Part shown: positions 5,915 through 31,964 of the stretch, piece by piece
Layout of the letters: the number at the start of each line of letters is the position of its first letter
Numbering within the stretch: position 1 is the first letter of the stretch
NCBI GenBank assembly: GCA_028713575.1
Contig: JAQTOB010000001.1
Location: forward strand, 70,379 to 102,378
Source of the DNA: Patescibacteria group bacterium
Lineage (GTDB): Bacteria > Patescibacteriota > Patescibacteriia > UBA2591 > UBA6264
Reading direction: 5' to 3'
Length of the DNA: 32,000 bases
Made by a program: the position numbers and the translations under genes
Notes under the pieces: model-generated
The model's database searches: none
Seen by the model: the letters and a program-made list of their open reading frames with translations, nothing else
What the model was told of the DNA's origin: nothing

Positions 5915-6921
5915 TATTTCATGGCTAAAATACTTCTTTTGTATGATTCTAAATTGTCTAAGGCCATGCCCGTTCCTCGCGCCACTGAAAGCAATGGTTC
6001 ATCGGCCAAATAAGCAGGAACGCCTATTTCTTTGGTTAATAATTTTTCAAAATTTCTCAATAAAGAACTTCCTCCGGACAAAACCATACCCTTTTCCATC
6101 ACGTCAGCGGACAATTCCGGCGGCGTTTCATAAAGCACTGATTTAACCGCTATTACAATTGCTTTTAACTCGTCTTGAATTGCCTCTGTAACGTCATCGG
6201 AATCAATGGTAATGACCCGAGGCAAACCTAAAATCATATCCCTTCCCTTAATATCTAGTTTGAGTTTTTTTTCTAATGGCAACGCTGATCCTATTTTTAT
6301 TTTAACTTCTTCGGCTGTTCTTTCTCCAATCGCCAAATTATATTTTTTTCTAATAAAAGTGGCAATAGCATAATCAAATTTATTTCCGGCGACTCTGACC
6401 GAAGTGCAAGAAACAATTCCTCCCAAAGAAATAACCGCCGCTTCGGTTGTTCCGCCGCCAATATCAATAATCATGTGGCCTGAAGCTGAACCAATTGGTA
6501 TATTTGAGCCAATGGCGGCCGCAATCGGTTCCTTAATAATATAAGCGGCCTTGGCTCCAGCCCTCATAGTAGCGTCAACCACGGCTCTTCTTTCAGAAGA
6601 AGTACAGCCGCCGGGAACAGCTACCATCACTTCTGGACGAAAAATATTAAAACGGCCAACCACTTTACCGATGAAATACTTTAACATTGCTTCTGTGGTT
6701 TTATAATCGGCAATAACTCCGTCTTTTAATGGCTTTTTCGCCACAATTGTATCCGGCGTCCGACCTATCATCTCTTTGGCCTCATCACCAACGGCTAAAA
6801 CGCTCTTATCTATAGTGGAAATGGCGACGACAGAAGGTTCATTGGTAACGATTCCCTTATTTGGCAAATAAACAAGAATATTTGTTGTTCCTAAATCAAT
6901 ACCTATTTTTTTATTAAACAT
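5914..6921 (-). CDS. mreB: rod-shape determining actin homologue MreB
   Basis: IGIDLGTTNILVY, EPSVVA, DGVIADY, IDIGGGTTE and SGGSSLLRNF are canonical MreB/actin-fold phosphate and adenosine motifs. Confidence 0.95.
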   Translation of the reverse strand: MFNKKIGIDLGTTNILVYLPNKGIVTNEPSVVAISTIDKSVLAVGDEAKEMIGRTPDTIVAKKPLKDGVIADYKTTEAMLKYFIGKVVGRFNIFRPEVMVAVPGGCTSSERRAVVDATMRAGAKAAYIIKEPIAAAIGSNIPIGSASGHMIIDIGGGTTEAAVISLGGIVSCTSVRVAGNKFDYAIATFIRKKYNLAIGERTAEEVKIKIGSALPLEKKLKLDIKGRDMILGLPRVITIDSDDVTEAIQDELKAIVIAVKSVLYETPPELSADVMEKGMVLSGGSSLLRNFEKLLTKEIGVPAYLADEPLLSVARGTGMALDNLESYKRSILAMK

Positions 6922-24986: not shown

Positions 24987-25334
24987 GGGGGTGAACGGCA
25001 TCGATGGAAAATTTAAATGTTAAAAATTGCTTTTTGTCCCGGGAAGACGTAAAATTTCCCAAAAAAACAATTGCCAACAAAGAGTTAGCATACGCTGTCG
25101 CTTAAATAAGCCATAGCCGCTGAAGTTGAAAATTTCTACTATTCAACCTTTGGTGTCATTCTTGTAGAATCGACGTTTTGACCTCCTGCGTCAAAATGTT
25201 TAAAAAAAGCGGGATAAGGTTATAAGATTTTGTCTGATTTTAATCTTTAAACCAAATAAACAAAGCAGACTATAAGAGTAGATATTTTTAACAGTGTTTT
25301 CTAGACGGGAGTTCGATTCTCCCCACCTCCACCA
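24987..25334 (+). ncRNA. ssrA: tmRNA (SsrA), one-piece, 348 nt with encoded CCA
   Basis: 5' GGGGGTGAACGGCATCGA pairs with 3' CACCTCCACCA, including the alanine-identity G3:U70 pair. T-arm is GGGAG-TTCGATT-CTCCC. Tag frame at 25073-25105 is GCC AAC AAA GAG TTA GCA TAC GCT GTC GCT TAA = ANKELAYAVA*. Confidence 0.9.
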
Positions 25335-26414: not shown

Positions 26415-26491
26415 GGTCCGTTGGTGTAGAGGCCCAACACATCTGCCTGTCACGCAGAAGATCACGGGTTCGAATCCCGTACGGACCGCCA
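26415..26491 (+). tRNA. tRNA-Asp (anticodon GTC), CCA encoded
   Basis: GGTCCGT-TG-GTGT-AGAGGCCCA-ACAC-A-TCTGC-CTGTCAC-GCAGA-AGATC-ACGGG-TTCGAAT-CCCGT-ACGGACC-G-CCA. Confidence 0.95.
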
Positions 26492-26529
26492 CTATCCTAC
26501 TCCCTTTGGGCTTCGGAATGGCAAGCCAT
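26492..26529 (+). repeat. Y block, copy 1 (38 nt immediately 3' of tRNA-Asp)
   Basis: CTATCCTACTCCCTTTGGGCTTCGGAATGGCAAGCCAT recurs at 28048-28085 with 33/38 identity, again directly after a ...GCCA end. Confidence 0.7.
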
Positions 26530-26534
26530 TGTTT

Positions 26535-26563
26535 AAAATAGAGTTATTCGTTCTATTTTTTTA
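26535..26563 (+). terminator. weak AU-rich intrinsic terminator after tRNA-Asp (Z block, copy 1)
   Basis: AAAATAGAG-TTATTCG-TTCTATTTTTTT. A homologous hairpin is at 28164-28188. Confidence 0.4.
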
Positions 26564-26575
26564 TTTAACACTTAC

Positions 26576-26591
26576 AAAAAGTTTTCCACAG
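26576..26591 (+). promoter_or_regulatory. W box copy 1 (AAAAAGTTTTCCACAG)
   Basis: One of three copies of the 16-nt motif AAAAAG-WTWT-MCACAG. This one ends 29 nt upstream of the -10 box at 26621. Confidence 0.5.
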
Positions 26592-26698: not shown

Positions 26699-27184
26699 TT
26701 ATTCTTCATTAATGCCCCGAGTTGCTAATCTTCTTATTCTATCTAAAGAATTGCCCTTTAAATCCATTGCTGGCATTATACTCCAGAATATTATTTTTCC
26801 ATCTCCCACCCTTCTAATAACAACCTTGATTCTTATCATATTTTCCTCTTTACCAACTATAGCAATAAAGCCCCAATATTCTCTAATCTTATTTATTACC
26901 AACTCGGATTTATTTTTCTTTTCTTTTATAGGAATAAAATCTTTTCTATATTCTTGTACTGTTCCGGATTTCTGAATTATTTTTATTGCCGCAGGTAAAA
27001 AGCTAAATTTAAAAATTTGCTCATTTTTGTCTCTTTCCCGGCGAGCAGAATATCTTAAATGGTGAAAACCATCGGAATTAAATGTAACCTTACAATCAAA
27101 ATAAGGGCAATAAATTTCTTTATTTTTAGAAAAAATCTCTTTAGACTTTCGAAAAAATTCTTGATATTTATTTTCGTTTTCCAT
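26699..27184 (-). CDS. orphan 161-aa protein, unknown function
   Basis: Clean ORF starting at ATG. No TM segment and no motif I can name. It has a conserved-looking N-terminal CPYFDCKVTFNSDGFHHLRYS and C-terminal IRIKVVIRRVGDGKIIFWSIMP. Confidence 0.65.
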   Translation of the reverse strand: MENENKYQEFFRKSKEIFSKNKEIYCPYFDCKVTFNSDGFHHLRYSARRERDKNEQIFKFSFLPAAIKIIQKSGTVQEYRKDFIPIKEKKNKSELVINKIREYWGFIAIVGKEENMIRIKVVIRRVGDGKIIFWSIMPAMDLKGNSLDRIRRLATRGINEE

Positions 27185-27190
27185 AAAAAA

Positions 27191-27221
27191 TTAGTTAACA
27201 TTATATTACAATATTAACTAA
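27191..27221 (-). promoter_or_regulatory. hairpin plus U6 immediately 5' of the 161-aa ORF start (attenuator, terminator or operator-like inverted repeat)
   Basis: Minus strand reads TTAGTTAATA-11 nt-TGTTAACTAA followed by TTTTTT then ATG. The 10-bp stem includes a U-G pair valid only on the minus strand. Confidence 0.4.
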
Positions 27222-27264
27222 TATTTTGGCATAAATCAACTAAAATAATAATAATTATTAATTT

Positions 27265-27280
27265 AAAAAGATATCCACAG
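27265..27280 (+). promoter_or_regulatory. W box copy 3 (AAAAAGATATCCACAG)
   Basis: Ends 29 nt upstream of the extended -10 box TGT-TATAAT (27307-27315). Confidence 0.5.
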
Positions 27281-27321
27281 ATAGAGCTACCGTAATTATT
27301 AAAATATGTTATAATAAATTC

Positions 27322-27428
27322 ATAAATCAAAAGCCTCCAAACAATCTGGAGACTCTTGATAAGTGAAAATTAATTTTCACTTTGTGCGTTTTTTGGTGAA
27401 TCGTTTTCAGAACGGTTCACTTTGTTTT
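27322..27428 (+). ncRNA. candidate ~105-nt small RNA, antisense to the 3' end of the 56-aa ORF
   Basis: Downstream of TGTTATAAT (27307-15). Contains hairpins CTCCA-7 nt-TGGAG (27335-51) and AAGTGAAAA-TTAA-TTTTCACTT (27361-82). The terminator is GTGAATCGTT-TTCAG-AACGGTTCAC (27396-420) followed by TTTGTTTT; its U-G pair works only on the plus strand. Confidence 0.35.
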
Positions 27429-27540
27429 GGAAAAAATTTCTATTATTTCCTGTTTCAAAGCAGAAAGCTCGTTTGTCATAATCTCTGGCATAAATACGAG
27501 TACCGTCTTTCAACGTAATCCACGCTCTAAAAATGAGCAT
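27370..27540 (-). CDS. possible 56-aa hydrophilic ORF (below the track cutoff)
   Basis: Hand translation: MLIFRAWITLKDGTRIYARDYDKRAFCFETGNNRNFFQNKVNRSENDSPKNAQSEN*. No obvious SD. An open frame of this length could arise by chance in AT-rich DNA. Confidence 0.3.
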   Translation of the reverse strand: MLIFRAWITLKDGTRIYARDYDKRAFCFETGNNRNFFQNKVNRSENDSPKNAQSEN

Positions 27541-27544
27541 ATGA

Positions 27545-27805
27545 TTTTTGTTTATCCGGCATTTAAAATCGTCCGGCTAAATGTTTAAAAAACCATAGAT
27601 TTTAATTGAATAAACAAAATCCACCAAAGGCAACTTCTCTGCCTCGAACCAGTGATTACAGAAAAATTAATGTAATACGAAGTTCGTCGGCAAATGTTAG
27701 GGTCTCCGACAAACCATAAAAAGTTTGGCAAAGAAGCTCCCTTTGATGGACCACCGTGGAGTTACTTGGTGTAGTAGTTGCCCCCTTGACCCTAATCAAG
27801 GTATA
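27545..27805 (-). ncRNA. structured RNA element of about 260 nt (long leader of the 56-aa ORF, or an independent ncRNA)
   Basis: No ORF, and locally higher GC. Minus-strand helices are CCUUGA-UUAGGG-UCAAGG (27784-801), GGCAA/UUGCC (27778-82 with 27727-31), GUUUGUCGG-15 nt-CCGACGAAC (27682-714, whose U-G pair becomes a C-A mismatch on the plus strand), AUUACA-10 nt-UGUAAU (27655-76) and AGGCA-7 nt-UGCCU (27628-44). Loop UUAGGGUC (27788-95) is perfectly complementary to loop GACCCUAA (27697-704). Confidence 0.45.
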
Positions 27806-27990
27806 AATTTAATAACAAAAGAACAATTATTCTTATATTTAATAGTAATGTTCCCCTCTTTATATTAGACGATAAAAACTGAATTTTGTTACACTATTTT
27901 CAACCAAAAATTAACTCATTTTAATTAAAAACCATTTAATCTTTAAATTTTTTGATTCACATTAGAACTTACAAACGAGGAAATGCCGAG

Positions 27991-28047
27991 ATTTACTGTT
28001 ATTTCCTCCCAATCAAGAATTCTGAAATCGTCCCGTAAACCCCGCCA
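27991..28047 (+). repeat. T1: decayed direct copy of the tRNA-Asp 3' half (anticodon loop to CCA)
   Basis: ATTTACTGTTATTTCCTCCCAATCAAGAATTCTGAAATCGTCCCGTAAACCCCGCCA aligns with tRNA-Asp CTGTCAC...GGTTCGAATCCCGTACGGACCGCCA. It is 46/57 identical to T2 at 29359-29415. Confidence 0.7.
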
Positions 28048-28085
28048 TTATCCTACTCCCCTTGGGCTTCGGAATGGTAAATCAT
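28048..28085 (+). repeat. Y block, copy 2
   Basis: TTATCCTACTCCCCTTGGGCTTCGGAATGGTAAATCAT; 33/38 identical to 26492-26529. Confidence 0.7.
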
Positions 28086-28139
28086 AAAATATTGCCAAAA
28101 ATAATTAGGTATTCCGTAGCTTAAAAAGCGAAGGATACT

Positions 28140-28155
28140 CGTCCGGACCGCCACT
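28140..28155 (+). repeat. third copy of the last 16 nt of the tRNA-Asp region
   Basis: CGTCCGGACCGCCACT versus tRNA-Asp CGTACGGACCGCCACT (26478-26493), 15/16 identical. Confidence 0.7.
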
Positions 28156-28163
28156 TCCTTAAA

Positions 28164-28188
28164 ATAGAGTTATCTGCTCTATCTTTTT
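28164..28188 (+). terminator. intrinsic terminator (Z block, copy 2)
   Basis: ATAGAG-TTATCTG-CTCTAT followed by CTTTTT. Homologous to 26535-26563. Confidence 0.5.
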
Positions 28189-28201
28189 ATTTATTTCTTA
28201 T

Positions 28202-28217
28202 AAAAAGTTATACACAG
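28202..28217 (+). promoter_or_regulatory. W box copy 2 (AAAAAGTTATACACAG)
   Basis: Ends 30 nt upstream of the -10 box TATTAT (28248-53). Confidence 0.5.
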
Positions 28218-28225
28218 GTTAAGTA

Positions 28226-28263
28226 TTGTAATTTCTTGTTCTTGTGGTATTATTATACCACAA
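28226..28263 (+). promoter_or_regulatory. promoter of the XRE-ImmA operon, overlapped by a perfect palindromic operator
   Basis: TTGTAA (28226-31), 16 nt, TATTAT (28248-53). The palindrome TTGTGGTAT-TATT-ATACCACAA (28242-28263) covers the -10 box. Confidence 0.5.
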
Positions 28264-28295
28264 AGGTCCTTATATTAATAAAAACTAAAAAAATT

Positions 28296-28673
28296 ATGAA
28301 AAATAACAATTTACAAAAATTTGGTCAAAAATTAAAAGAATTACGAATTAACAAAGGTTTAACTCTTAGAAAAATGTGTAAAAAGGTAGGTTATGACCCC
28401 AGTAATTGGAGTAAAATAGAAAGAGGCAGAATCCCTCCCCCTTCTAATGAAAAAATACTAAATAAATGGGCTGAAGCATTGGGATTGATAAATTCTATAG
28501 AAATTAAAAAATTTATAAGCGATGCGCAAATAGCACAAGGATTAATCCCGTCCGATATTATGAAAGAAGAAGATATTACAGAATATCTACCAGCTTTTTT
28601 TAGGTCCATAAAAAAAGAAAAAATGACCAAAAAAGATATAGAAGAATTAATAAAATTAATCAGAAAAAGTTAA
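28296..28673 (+). CDS. XRE/Cro-CI family helix-turn-helix transcriptional regulator
   Basis: FGQKLKELRINKGLTLRKMCKKVGYDPSNWSKIERGR is the canonical HTH_3 pattern. Start taken at ATG 28296; the track start at 28236 is a TTG inside the promoter/operator. Confidence 0.85.
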   Translation: MKNNNLQKFGQKLKELRINKGLTLRKMCKKVGYDPSNWSKIERGRIPPPSNEKILNKWAEALGLINSIEIKKFISDAQIAQGLIPSDIMKEEDITEYLPAFFRSIKKEKMTKKDIEELIKLIRKS

Positions 28674-29281
28674 ATGGAAATTCCGTACCTTGATGACGAA
28701 AAAATTAAAAAAATAGCGGATAGTTTTAGGGTTAAATTTTCTGACAATTCAATTCCTGTAGAAATGGAAGAGATTATAGAATTGAGACTAAAAATGTATA
28801 TTGCTCTATCGCCGGGGCTAAAATATCTCCAAGGAATAGATATGATAATAATGTCTAACTTCAAATCTATTTATGTTGACGAAAATATTTATTCTGACGA
28901 AACTCAAAAAAATAGATTAAGATTCTCTTACGCCCACGAAATAGGACATTTCGTTTTACACAAAGATATTTACAAAAAATTTGGGATAAAAGATTGGAAA
29001 AATTTTTACAACATCCAAAAAAAGAATCTTATCAAAAAAACATTAAAAGAATTGACAAACAAGCTGATATTTTTGCGGGATATCTTCTTATGCCAGAAGA
29101 TAGATTGGAAATTGAAAAAAATCAAATATTAGAATCATTAGATATAGAATTATTATCTAAAATAAAATCTATGCCGAAAGAAACACTAAATCAATTATTA
29201 GCTTCGCAGTTATCAATTATTTTTGGCGTTTCTCAGATGGCTATGTTTATAGCATTAAAAAAACTTGAAAACAAAAAATAA
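28674..29281 (+). CDS. ImmA/IrrE family (COG2856-like) zinc metallopeptidase, split by a -1 frameshift (pseudogene or recoding)
   Basis: Frame 0 carries the HEXXH motif (SYAHEIGHFVLH). The -1 frame carries the family's downstream motif (DKQADIFAGYLLMP). The frames can be joined at A AAA AAG (29018-29024), giving about 202 aa. The ATG abuts the XRE stop codon. Confidence 0.75.
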
Positions 29282-30491: not shown

Positions 30492-30694
30492 ATTTTAATT
30501 CTACTCTTAATGTTTTTTGCTAATTTAATTAAAAAATCTATTTGACTTACCCATTTTTAATAAAATTTCTACACCTTTTCTATAAAATTAAATAAATATT
30601 ATTTAACGAAAAAACAGTAAACTGCGCTCGCTTATTTAATTCGCTGTTTTCTTCTGTATAAAACATTGAGCAATAAAGCGTTAGTGGGTTTTAA

Positions 30695-30720
30695 TGGAGG
30701 AGAAGGCGGGGCGGTTCAAC
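30695..30720 (-). repeat. pseudo-tRNA fragment (tRNA-Ser-like T-loop to CCA)
   Basis: Minus strand GTTGAACCGCCCCGCCTTCTCCTCCA versus the tRNA-Ser 3' end GTTCGAATCTCGCCCTCTCCGCCA. No matching 5' half is present. Confidence 0.5.
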
Positions 30721-30791
30721 AGGCTCGCCGTCTTATCAACAATCTCACGGCTCTTGCTTAATTTTTAAAAGTCCCGAATTTATTGAAAAAC

Positions 30792-30879
30792 GGAGAGGGC
30801 GGGATTTCCGCCAGCGGGCGGATAAACTTCTTATCCCTCTATTTTATACCGCCAAACAATCAACTAGATTGTTTGGCGG
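30792..30879 (-). repeat. R2: second copy of the GC-rich repeat unit
   Basis: Perfect 13-bp hairpin CCGCCAAACAATC-AACTA-GATTGTTTGGCGG (30849-30879). Also GGCGGAAATCCCGCCCTCTCCG (minus strand, 30792-30813), which matches tRNA-Ser CGAATCTCGCCCTCTCCG at 16/18 positions. Confidence 0.6.
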
Positions 30880-31082
30880 GACACTCGGGTTAAGTACCCC
30901 AAAATGTTGATATTATAGAGGTATTATAGCGCTTTTTTGGCTTTCTGAATAGAGGCAAATTTAAAGCACGTGGGTCGGGGTCTGTATTTTGCAAATGGGA
31001 CAAATGGGACACTTTTTGCGGATGTCGTCCCGAGTCTCATTTGTGGTAATATCTCCCTAATCAAAAACTTTTTTTGGGAATT

Positions 31083-31964
31083 TTAGGCCTCTGGTGGGAA
31101 TCTTCGCCATTTTCCCTTCCTTTCCGATACCATATGTTCTACAAGTATACTCTGGGCTTCGTCTGAACTTCTTATAGCATTTCGATCTGTTGGCTCAGCT
31201 TCTTTTGCAAATCTTATAATTTTTTCTGTAATAACTTTATCTGTTTCTAGATTAATCCTGTCTGTATCATCAAATTTTCGGGATTTCATGTTCCTCCATG
31301 TGGATGGCATATATTTGTCCCACATACGAGTCACCAGAAAAGAAGTGTCATCAGGAGGAATAGAAGCAAAACTTACAACGCCTCTACTTTTTACGTCTTC
31401 AGGAAATGCAGAATAGTGTTGATCTAGTTTTGATAAATCATCTTTAAAGTCACTACCTTTTATAAATGATTGATCGGGCCTCAAGAAAAAAGATGAGATG
31501 CCAATATGAATTTTATCATTTGAAACAAAAATTTTACAAAAAGGTAAATAGTATAAATAAGCGATATCGACTTTGTGAGTTTGCGGGTGGCGAAAACTCG
31601 AAAAAAGATTAGAGTTAATCCCTAAATAGAAAAATAAATCGACCGACAATACATATGTAAAATAAGGCGCAAATTCTTTGATTGGTTTACTACCATCATC
31701 CTTCCATCTTTGTAAAATCTCTTTTTGAGCTTCGGGCGAGAAATCGATAAGAGAGAGGCCGAGAATCAAAATATCTTTTTTGTCTAATTCATCAATAATG
31801 CGGTCTACTTGTATCTTTAATTCGCTAAGAGATTTTGGTACACCAAACAAGCCTAAAAATCGCTGGGATATTTTATGACTTTCTACCTGGGTCATACTTT
31901 TTAAGCCCCTTCTCCATCTTTTAGCGATTTTTTGTTCAATCTCTAAAATTGATGCTCTTGCCAT
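31083..31964 (-). CDS. orphan 293-aa protein, unknown function
   Basis: ATG-initiated ORF with GC visibly above the window background (about 43% in a hand-counted 60-mer versus about 30% elsewhere). No family recognised. The segment DIAYLYYLPFCKIFVSNDK loosely resembles the last acidic strand of PIN-like nucleases (weak). Confidence 0.65.
   Translation of the reverse strand: MARASILEIEQKIAKRWRRGLKSMTQVESHKISQRFLGLFGVPKSLSELKIQVDRIIDELDKKDILILGLSLIDFSPEAQKEILQRWKDDGSKPIKEFAPYFTYVLSVDLFFYLGINSNLFSSFRHPQTHKVDIAYLYYLPFCKIFVSNDKIHIGISSFFLRPDQSFIKGSDFKDDLSKLDQHYSAFPEDVKSRGVVSFASIPPDDTSFLVTRMWDKYMPSTWRNMKSRKFDDTDRINLETDKVITEKIIRFAKEAEPTDRNAIRSSDEAQSILVEHMVSERKGKWRRFPPEA

Follow-up and report, generated by a model that had tools for sequence, protein, structure and literature searches.

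A strand-specific structured RNA from a Patescibacteria group bacterium, a candidate 5′ leader for a small phage-type gene

The DNA considered here, called the window throughout, is a stretch of 32,000 nucleotides (nt) from a Patescibacteria group bacterium (assembly GCA_028713575.1, contig JAQTOB010000001.1, positions 70,379 to 102,378 of the forward strand), whose genome has ~30% GC; coordinates count from its first letter. At 27545-27805 a first-pass annotation, made from the letters alone, had flagged a helix-dense RNA on the minus strand, and this stretch is a strand-specific folded RNA of ~260-310 nt that represents a previously undescribed family. The surrounding DNA had been described as free of open reading frames (ORFs), and no ORF of at least 60 aa occurs in 27185-28235 on either strand, but a conserved ORF of 56 aa starts 5 nt past 27545 and lies directly downstream of the RNA (27540-27370), contrary to the implied absence of an attached gene. 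Homologues of the RNA showing covariation were found in two further CPR (Candidate Phyla Radiation) lineages from metagenomes (L177 and L186/187) and in a phage contig (L098), in each of which the RNA stands directly upstream of a homologue of this small ORF.

The architecture begins with a pair of hairpins at the 5′ side, continues with the 26-bp helix P3, by which a three-way junction (P4, P5 and P6) is closed, and finishes with a 3′ hairpin (P7). The leader would measure ~310 nt from the putative promoter (27891-27862) to the AUG at 27540, with 27545-27805 spanning P1 to P7. The putative sigma-70-like promoter (27862..27891, minus strand), read from the sequence, is composed of a -35 element TAACAA (27891-27886), an 18-nt spacer and a -10 element TAATAT (27867-27862); its equivalent in L177 is TGACAA-18-TTACAT, it was absent from the promoter-scan output, and the predicted transcript start lies at ~27858-27850. 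All following elements are on the minus strand. P0 (27815..27858), the 5′-most AU-rich hairpin, holds the near-palindrome AAGAATAATTGTTCTT and appeared when the window, L177 and L187 were folded as a consensus, its stem being maintained across many sequence differences. P1 (27784..27801; CCUUGA-UUAGGG-UCAAGG), whose loop L1 is one kissing partner, is invariant in L177 and L186/187 and has the equivalent CUCGU-UUCAUAG-ACGAG in L098. P2 (27752..27771), a small hairpin CACC-N12-GGUG, was present in both the fold and the consensus fold, and a C-to-U change in L177 leaves a U-G pair there.

The long helix P3 is formed by a 5′ arm GGUCCAUCAAAGGGAGCUUCUUUGCC (27727..27752) and a 3′ arm GGCAGAGAAGUUGCCUUUGGUGGAUU (27618..27643), with 25/26 pairs in the window and 24/26 in L098. 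In the three-way junction, P4 (27711..27726; AAACU-UUUUAU-GGUUU) has the L098 counterpart AGACC-UUCG-GGUUU, and P5 (27686..27710; GUCGG...CCGAC) carries in its loop GACCCUAA (27704-27697), the partner of L1; the covariance model aligned GGAGUG-CUAUGAA-CACUC of L098 to P5. P6 (27646..27685), the variable hairpin of the junction, is absent in L098 and shows two compensatory double changes (G-C to A-U, U-A to C-G) together with loop indels of 5 and 1 nt. P7 (27546..27619) has an outer stem UUUUGUUUAU/AUAAACAAAA of 10-11 bp around a CCGG...CCGG hairpin, and 5-6 nt separate the end of its conserved CCGGAUAA(A)C from the AUG at 27540; counterparts were seen in L098 (with a compensating indel) and L195. 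The small ORF (MLIFRAWITLKDGTRIYARDYDKRAF..., 27370..27540), the gene that the leader would serve, is followed at and after its stop by two hairpins read from the sequence (27324..27380), the second of which, CUCCAGAUUGUUUGGAG then GCUUUUGAUUU, looks like an intrinsic terminator; this region is strongly structured on both strands, and the second hairpin was absent from the terminator-scan output.

The minimum free energy (MFE) of 27545-27805 on the minus strand was -86.5 kcal/mol versus -56.5 ± 4.6 kcal/mol for 200 dinucleotide shuffles (z = -6.56; 0/200 as good), and the plus strand gave z = -2.73. The flagged fold and its strand were thus borne out, with an excess stability over the shuffled control on the minus strand, and so was the local rise in GC (0.43 at 27625-27774 versus 0.25-0.34 nearby). 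The wobble asymmetry that had been noticed is also present, with 6 minus-strand G-U pairs among the 25 pairs of the 26-nt outer helix; at 6/25, however, the helix is not built largely of G-U pairs as had been stated, and instead of closing a local AGGCA/UGCCU hairpin it pairs 27752-27727 with 27643-27618. The proposed 9-bp helix GUUUGUCGG/CCGACGAAC can be drawn, but AAACU/GGUUU plus GUCGG/CCGAC, which shares its bases, was preferred by both the folding and the covariance models. Two mini-ORFs noted within the RNA exist, but neither is conserved: L177 reads AUA for the AUG of the first, and in L186 the stretch holding the second is replaced. When the whole window was scanned (32 kb, 490 windows, both strands), windows over the RNA and the adjacent small ORF and terminator stood near the top for structure; z was -4.5 for the aligned minus-strand window 27561-27820, and 27171-27560, 30681-31070 and 6501-6760 scored as well or better.

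Homologues were sought with R1, a covariance model of the P3-P6 core, which gave 167 bits for L177, 151 bits for L186/187 and 35 bits (E = 1.4e-7) for L098, and no match in 445 kb of other CPR loci. L177, from a Joint Genome Institute metagenome, contains the closest relative of the small ORF and is ~90% identical to the window across an upstream motif (described below), an AT-rich spacer, the RNA and the small ORF; its downstream genes (SLFN/AlbA_2 and KAP NTPase) are unrelated to those of the window, which indicates that the unit is portable. L186 and L187 are two ENA contigs with a third variant, and the much-diverged match in L098, a phage contig, falls exactly between a tyrosine integrase gene and the small-ORF homologue. 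In L195, a truncated contig, the P3 3′ arm and P7 are visible. Contigs L088-L091 were set aside as a comparison because they are of the same species and 99.8-100% identical, and so carry no information.

Between the window and L177, 10/12 substituted paired positions still pair, mostly through minus-strand G-U, with one G-C to A-U double change; 24 changes fall in 96 unpaired columns versus 12 in 170 paired ones (a ~3.5-fold higher rate in unpaired columns), and indels are confined to loops. In the four-sequence model alignment 98.4% of cells are paired, and 12/49 pairs are changed on both sides, versus 3.8 ± 1.6 in shuffles (0/500 reach 12) and 1-4 when partners were slid by 1-3 columns; seven of these pairs lie in P3 alone, where 98% of cells are paired. 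The consensus fold of the three close sequences also kept P0, P1, P2 and the P7 outer stem. The junction sequences differ between the window and L098 (four sequences compared, three of them close).

The loop of P1 had been reported as complementary over 8 nt to a loop further downstream, with a kissing contact suggested. The complementarity UUAGGGUC (27795-27788)/GACCCUAA is present (P = 0.004 when P5 was shuffled), and neither L1 nor L5 varies in sequence between the window, L177 and L186. At the homologous hairpins of the distant L098, the loops UUCAUAG/CUAUGAA are complementary at 7/7 nt (P = 0.005); since window-type and L098 loops share almost nothing and both are complementary, this amounts to covariation of a tertiary or long-range pairing and lends support to the suggested contact. 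Two further leaders with long helices, L188 and L182 (25 and 27 stacked pairs; P3 has 23-24 MFE-stacked pairs in the window and L098), contain complementarities of 10 nt (GUGGUUGUUU/AAACAACCAC, P = 0.003) and 8 nt (P = 0.03), respectively, and serve as a supporting analogy only because they are not detectably homologous by covariance model. From the sequence comparisons, the L1/L5 pairing may be either intramolecular or intermolecular, both being compatible with them.

The earlier statement that the RNA matches no known family also held: against Rfam 15 (4227 models, including riboswitches, RNase P, SRP, 6S, tmRNA, group I/II introns, HEARO and OLE, and understood to include pRNA, ROOL and GOLLD), nothing in 27200-28400 reached the gathering score, and at E up to 10 the same interval gave noise only (11-20 bits versus thresholds of 45-114). 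Rfam likewise gave no match upstream of the small ORF in 15 related loci, and blastn of the RNA region against sequence databases gave none. DNA pattern scans of viral contigs (kissing-loop pair, GGUUCGAGG, P3/P7 signature) returned chance matches and the contig of L098 itself only.

Several other identities were tried and discarded. A tRNA or tRNA-like gene was sought with ARAGORN, with introns allowed and thresholds lowered, and none was found in 27200-28400; the tRNA-like words near the RNA are repeats of a tRNA-Asp 3′ end on the opposite strand. A group II intron fragment was rejected for want of Rfam matches, the real intron in L086 sitting elsewhere. A coding sequence or pseudogene was rejected because the RNA region has only nonsense-like ORFs of at most 48 aa, its homologues differ by 5-nt and 1-nt indels, and substitutions track helices rather than codon positions. 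A leader of the neighbouring 161-aa gene (26699-27184) was dismissed as well, as nothing similar stands upstream of that gene in 80 genome loci or in its closest relatives (68-74% identity).

A word-indexed search with the small ORF returned only the small ORF itself. By exhaustive phmmer against 1.84 billion representatives, 16 small proteins were found to share the N-terminal ~30 residues (M.IFRAWITLKDGTRIYARDYGKRAF.F), and a profile search extended these to 793 proteins related to the small ORF, many on IMG/VR phage contigs. In nucleotide alignments with phage homologues the differences fall mostly at third codon positions, which indicates that the small ORF is translated. NCBIfam yielded a single weak match, to the NlpD model, for one relative (E 0.0098). 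In deposited phage genomes tblastn returned nothing for the small-protein consensus, and no paper was found by full-text literature search for the motif. The protein is hydrophilic and basic, without a membrane segment, and was modelled by AlphaFold with a mean pLDDT (predicted local distance difference test) of 67 and a confident beta-hairpin and short helix. A widespread, unannotated family of small proteins (~36-56 aa, ~800 relatives) is thereby brought to light; its members accompany pairs of XRE and ImmA-like regulators in temperate phages and integration scars, which suggests a small effector with expression controlled at two levels.

No U-rich terminator lies between the RNA and the ORF: P7 is followed by AAAAAUCAU, with the AUG within 5-6 nt. 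Partition-function folding of the leader with the ORF start in four homologues gave a mean probability of being unpaired of 0.16-0.25 for positions -20 to -1 and of ~0-0.1 for the AUG itself, and the last hairpin P7 and the start codon were predicted to be paired in all four. The relatives of the small ORF in gut phages have a different covarying leader, with a long hairpin and a hairpin abutting the Shine-Dalgarno sequence (14/24 pairs double-changed). The absence of a terminator, the paired start region, and the differing or short leaders in relatives fit a cis-regulatory accessory better than an independent RNA. On these sequence comparisons, the RNA is taken to be a cis-acting structured 5′ leader of the mRNA of a conserved small phage-type gene, to which a probability of about 0.6 is assigned, and the leader probably hides the start codon of that gene, as judged from the folding models. 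The first-pass annotation had offered a new cis-regulatory leader or a mobile-element noncoding RNA, and such a role gains support from the strand, the lack of a known family, the covarying homologues, and the context of the ORF and tRNA-Asp scar.

As an observation in its own right, the gut-phage leader (L099-L176, IMG/VR) occupies ~170 nt upstream of the small ORF and consists of a terminator-like hairpin followed by the long covarying hairpin, which has conserved CAACUGG and AUAACAC bulges; it had no Rfam match and is a candidate RNA motif of its own.

Several points weigh against assignment of the RNA as such a leader. The core is represented by four distinct sequences, three of which are ~90% identical, and their alignment was fitted to the structure by the model. 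Promoter, transcript ends and a joint transcript of RNA and ORF are predictions, and involvement of RNase III, repression by the XRE protein and a ligand or protein partner are proposals. L178, a CPR-type relative of the small ORF, has a short leader only, and such short-leader homologues imply that the large fold is dispensable for the gene. The covariance scores of L182 and L188 (14-16 bits) are no better than those of unrelated terminator hairpins, and a second covariance model that included L098 could not separate the two from ordinary terminator hairpins. Finally, the small protein has no match in Pfam, PHROGs or PADLOC, and Foldseek with its model against the PDB gave nothing meaningful.

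For the proposed leader the following mechanism may be envisaged. The loop-loop contact and coaxial helices would lock the leader in a compact fold, in which the ribosome landing region (-20 to +3) would be paired and the small gene translationally silent by default. Release or turnover would likely take place at the long P3 duplex, acting as an RNase III-type substrate or a protein docking site; with 26 bp it is long enough for an RNase III-type enzyme (about two helical turns, at least 20 bp), which makes this the most economical route. Transcription of the cassette would probably be controlled by the neighbouring XRE repressor and ImmA-like protease, and the small protein would then be a stress- or infection-induced product of a mobile element. 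It is further conceivable, if rather unlikely, that the leader is a self-assembling or signal-responsive riboregulator, in which the loops, ~26 bp apart, pair between molecules (dimers or rings) or are opened by a factor, coupled to release of the start codon. A conserved pairing that would alternate with this fold was not established; the 9-bp GUUUGUCGG/CCGACGAAC pairing, an extended P5 that competes with P4, is drawable in both the window and L098 and is just a hint. A leader that senses a signal or self-assembles would be considerably more interesting, and would define a new class of structured RNA common to CPR bacteria and phages, as part of an XRE-ImmA-small-gene module.

The strongest competing view is that the RNA is an independent functional noncoding RNA whose loops pair between molecules into dimers or rings, as in phi29 pRNA and ROOL/GOLLD, the ORF being merely co-transcribed or encoding an RNA-binding protein. 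L1 and L5 are separated by the 26 bp of P3, a geometry that may disfavour an intramolecular kiss, their complementarity covaries, the RNA sits in phage or mobile-element DNA rich in tRNA genes, and the basic protein, with its modelled beta-hairpin and short helix, could bind RNA. The RNA was, however, never seen without the ORF, no terminator separates the two, P7 and the initiation region overlap, the pRNA, ROOL and GOLLD models gave no match, and the different or short leaders of the ORF relatives fit an accessory regulator better than an obligate partner; this view is accordingly held to be improbable. The small gene could also be of the toxin type (type I toxin-antitoxin or SOS-induced), with an mRNA inert until processing and an antisense RNA, not yet seen, as antitoxin. 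Its small size and the long leader sequestering the start region would suit this, as would the self-contained cassette with its own terminator in mobile-element contexts and the adjoining XRE and ImmA-like pair of a DNA-damage-responsive kind (bioRxiv 10.1101/2022.04.27.489752). Such a toxin is nevertheless quite improbable, for the protein, hydrophilic and basic, lacks the membrane segment that most type I toxins have, neither a promoter nor a conserved feature was identified for an antisense RNA, folding of the plus strand is far poorer, and PADLOC had no match for the ORF.

Inverted repeats acting at the DNA level (ends of a miniature element, a recombination or attachment site, or protein-binding palindromes) might be expected in a region that is bracketed by direct repeats of a tRNA-Asp 3′ end, forms a ~720-nt insertion relative to the closest syntenic relatives, and has integrase or transposase genes adjoining the cassette in L098, L182 and L188. 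As DNA, however, the P3 arms are 73% identical and reach 25/26 pairing only with minus-strand G-U, substitutions in homologues go via G-U and not A-C, the fold is strongly strand-asymmetric, and loop-loop covariation would be meaningless for duplex DNA, all of which leaves this explanation very improbable. Least probable of all is that the structure arose by chance in intergenic DNA of low complexity and locally raised GC. AT-rich genomes do yield many hairpins, and an 8-nt complementarity anywhere between the 5′ region and the helix interior has P = 0.07, but none of the 200 shuffles folded as well (z = -6.56), substitutions preserve the structure, the covariance model matched at the homologous position in phage contig L098 with an independent loop complementarity, and the differing flanks argue against the homologues being assembly duplicates of one genome.

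Among known systems, the RNase III-processed phage leaders (lambda N leader, lambda cIII, T7 early mRNAs) resemble the proposed leader in their phage or mobile context, in a near-perfect duplex of >20 bp in the leader of a small basic protein gene, in an occluded initiation region, and in an extra transcriptional layer from a repressor. There is no sequence or model similarity to them and no nut-like element in the RNA described here, in which RNase III cleavage is putative, and its three-way junction and covarying loop-loop contact are not known from those leaders. Translation-inert mRNAs of small toxins (hok, tisB, dinQ and aapA1 of type I toxin-antitoxin systems) likewise place a very small ORF after a long, compact leader in which the ribosome-binding region is hidden, in a stand-alone cassette on mobile DNA, and the regulators adjoining the present cassette are of a DNA-damage-linked kind; here, in contrast, the protein is hydrophilic, no antisense RNA was found and the architecture is different. 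The purine riboswitch, a three-way junction with an L2-L3 kiss, shares with this RNA the combination of junction and covarying loop-loop contact upstream of a gene, with the 3′ hairpin as a possible expression platform. Unlike it, the present RNA is ~4x larger and its kiss connects a hairpin of the junction with another lying outside it; unlike riboswitches in general, it has no Rfam riboswitch match, its downstream gene gives no metabolite hint, and no conserved ligand-pocket nucleotides are definable from four sequences. With phi29 pRNA, ROOL and GOLLD it has in common a phage link, nearby tRNA genes and two complementary loops able to pair between molecules, but it has no Rfam match at the gathering score or at E up to 10, is always fused to an ORF, and falls far short of ROOL or GOLLD in size. 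Known structured regulatory RNAs are very few in Patescibacteria (CPR) and in their phages, and the present one, with its defined architecture, covariation that includes a tertiary contact, and clear genetic partner, is suited to RNA family databases.

The cassette of RNA and small ORF is divergent from a pair of genes on the plus strand: an XRE-type helix-turn-helix (HTH) gene (28296-28673; start probably ATG at 28296; Pfam HTH_19, 2.5e-12; PADLOC capH, 1.8e-9) and an ImmA/IrrE-like M78 peptidase gene (28674-29132; Pfam Peptidase_M78, 1.5e-4; PADLOC capP, 6.8e-11). On gut-phage contigs the order is lysis genes, XRE HTH (~117 aa), ImmA-like (~170 aa), leader, small ORF and terminase genes, and the HTH protein of the window aligns full length with the phage HTH. 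An operator-like word TTGTTCTTTTGTTATTA (27810..27826, minus strand) is shared with L177 and L186 and recurs in inverted orientation as TTGTTCTTGTGGTATTA at 28236-28252 (plus strand) before the HTH gene; the copies are identical at 15/17 positions and so stand in front of both transcription units, and the HTH protein may bind this 17-nt word. A perfect palindrome, GTGGTATTATTATACCAC (28244-28261), overlaps the putative HTH-gene promoter and, by its sequence, is a likely autoregulatory operator. The ImmA-like gene (28674-29281) is split into ORFs of 152 aa and 63 aa in the window and in two same-species contigs (L088-L090 set) and is intact, at 202 aa, in contig L089, so that the split is either a frameshift polymorphism or an assembly error.

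Pairs of XRE and ImmA-like proteins are regulators that respond to DNA damage (bioRxiv 10.1101/2022.04.27.489752), and the analogy with CapH/CapP and ImmR/ImmA raises the possibility that cleavage of the repressor induces transcription of the cassette. The likeness to these systems (bioRxiv 10.1101/2022.04.27.489752) lies in the adjoining capH- and capP-matching genes and the 17-nt word before both units. It concerns the neighbour genes and not the RNA; unlike in CapH/CapP, the putative cargo is a 56-aa gene ~750 nt away, past a tRNA-flank repeat, and the peptidase gene looks frameshifted in this assembly.

Upstream in the window lie a tmRNA (24987-25334), followed by infC, rpmI and rplT, then tRNA-Asp (26415-26491, plus strand) and the 161-aa gene (26699-27184, minus strand); the flagged region is followed by the XRE-type HTH and ImmA/IrrE-like M78 peptidase genes (28296-29132, plus strand) and a tRNA-Arg. 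The 3′ end of tRNA-Asp is directly repeated together with its downstream flank (26475-26591 versus 28031-28217, 83-84% identical), and a third copy of the tRNA-Asp 3′ end stands at 28140-28155; together these repeats enclose the 161-aa gene, small ORF and RNA. A segment bracketed in this way is the signature of integration at a tRNA gene, and the repeats suggest repeated integration at tRNA-Asp; no integrase is left in the window. In the closest syntenic relatives a ~75-nt motif precedes the 161-aa gene by 70 nt, and the same motif in the window (28047-27979) lies ~800 nt from that gene, the RNA and small ORF forming the ~720-nt insertion mentioned above.

This motif of ~70 nt (27979-28047, minus strand; TGGCGGGGTYTACGGGACGATTTYAGAAY...GATTGGGAGGAAATAAC), present also in L082-L087 and L177, resembles when read on the plus strand a degenerate tRNA-Asp T-arm and acceptor 3′ end with a terminal CCA. 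In L082-84 it stands on either side of the 161-aa gene, and in L177 it comes before the RNA cassette; it looks like an attachment-site scar or an integration target. Words like CTGTGGAWAWCTTTTT occur three times on the minus strand of the window (26591, 27280 and 28217). The 161-aa protein has hundreds of CPR homologues (349 matches, the family being restricted to CPR) and no Pfam, PHROGs or PADLOC annotation; the family is well conserved, its DGFHHL and FWS motifs being invariant. In L086 a group II intron (843-1382; 5′ end GTGCAGC...) follows TTTGTGGATAACT downstream of the 161-aa gene, and the same intron is absent from L087, which is otherwise identical to L086.

Elsewhere in the window, a ~430-nt ORF-free and locally GC-rich stretch (30650-31080) lies between a tRNA-Ser and an ORF at 31083-31964. 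No match to Rfam was obtained for it at E up to 1. It folds with z ~ -5 on both strands, contains a perfect 13-bp hairpin CCGCCAAACAATC...GATTGTTTGGCGG, and may be another structured RNA or a recombination site.

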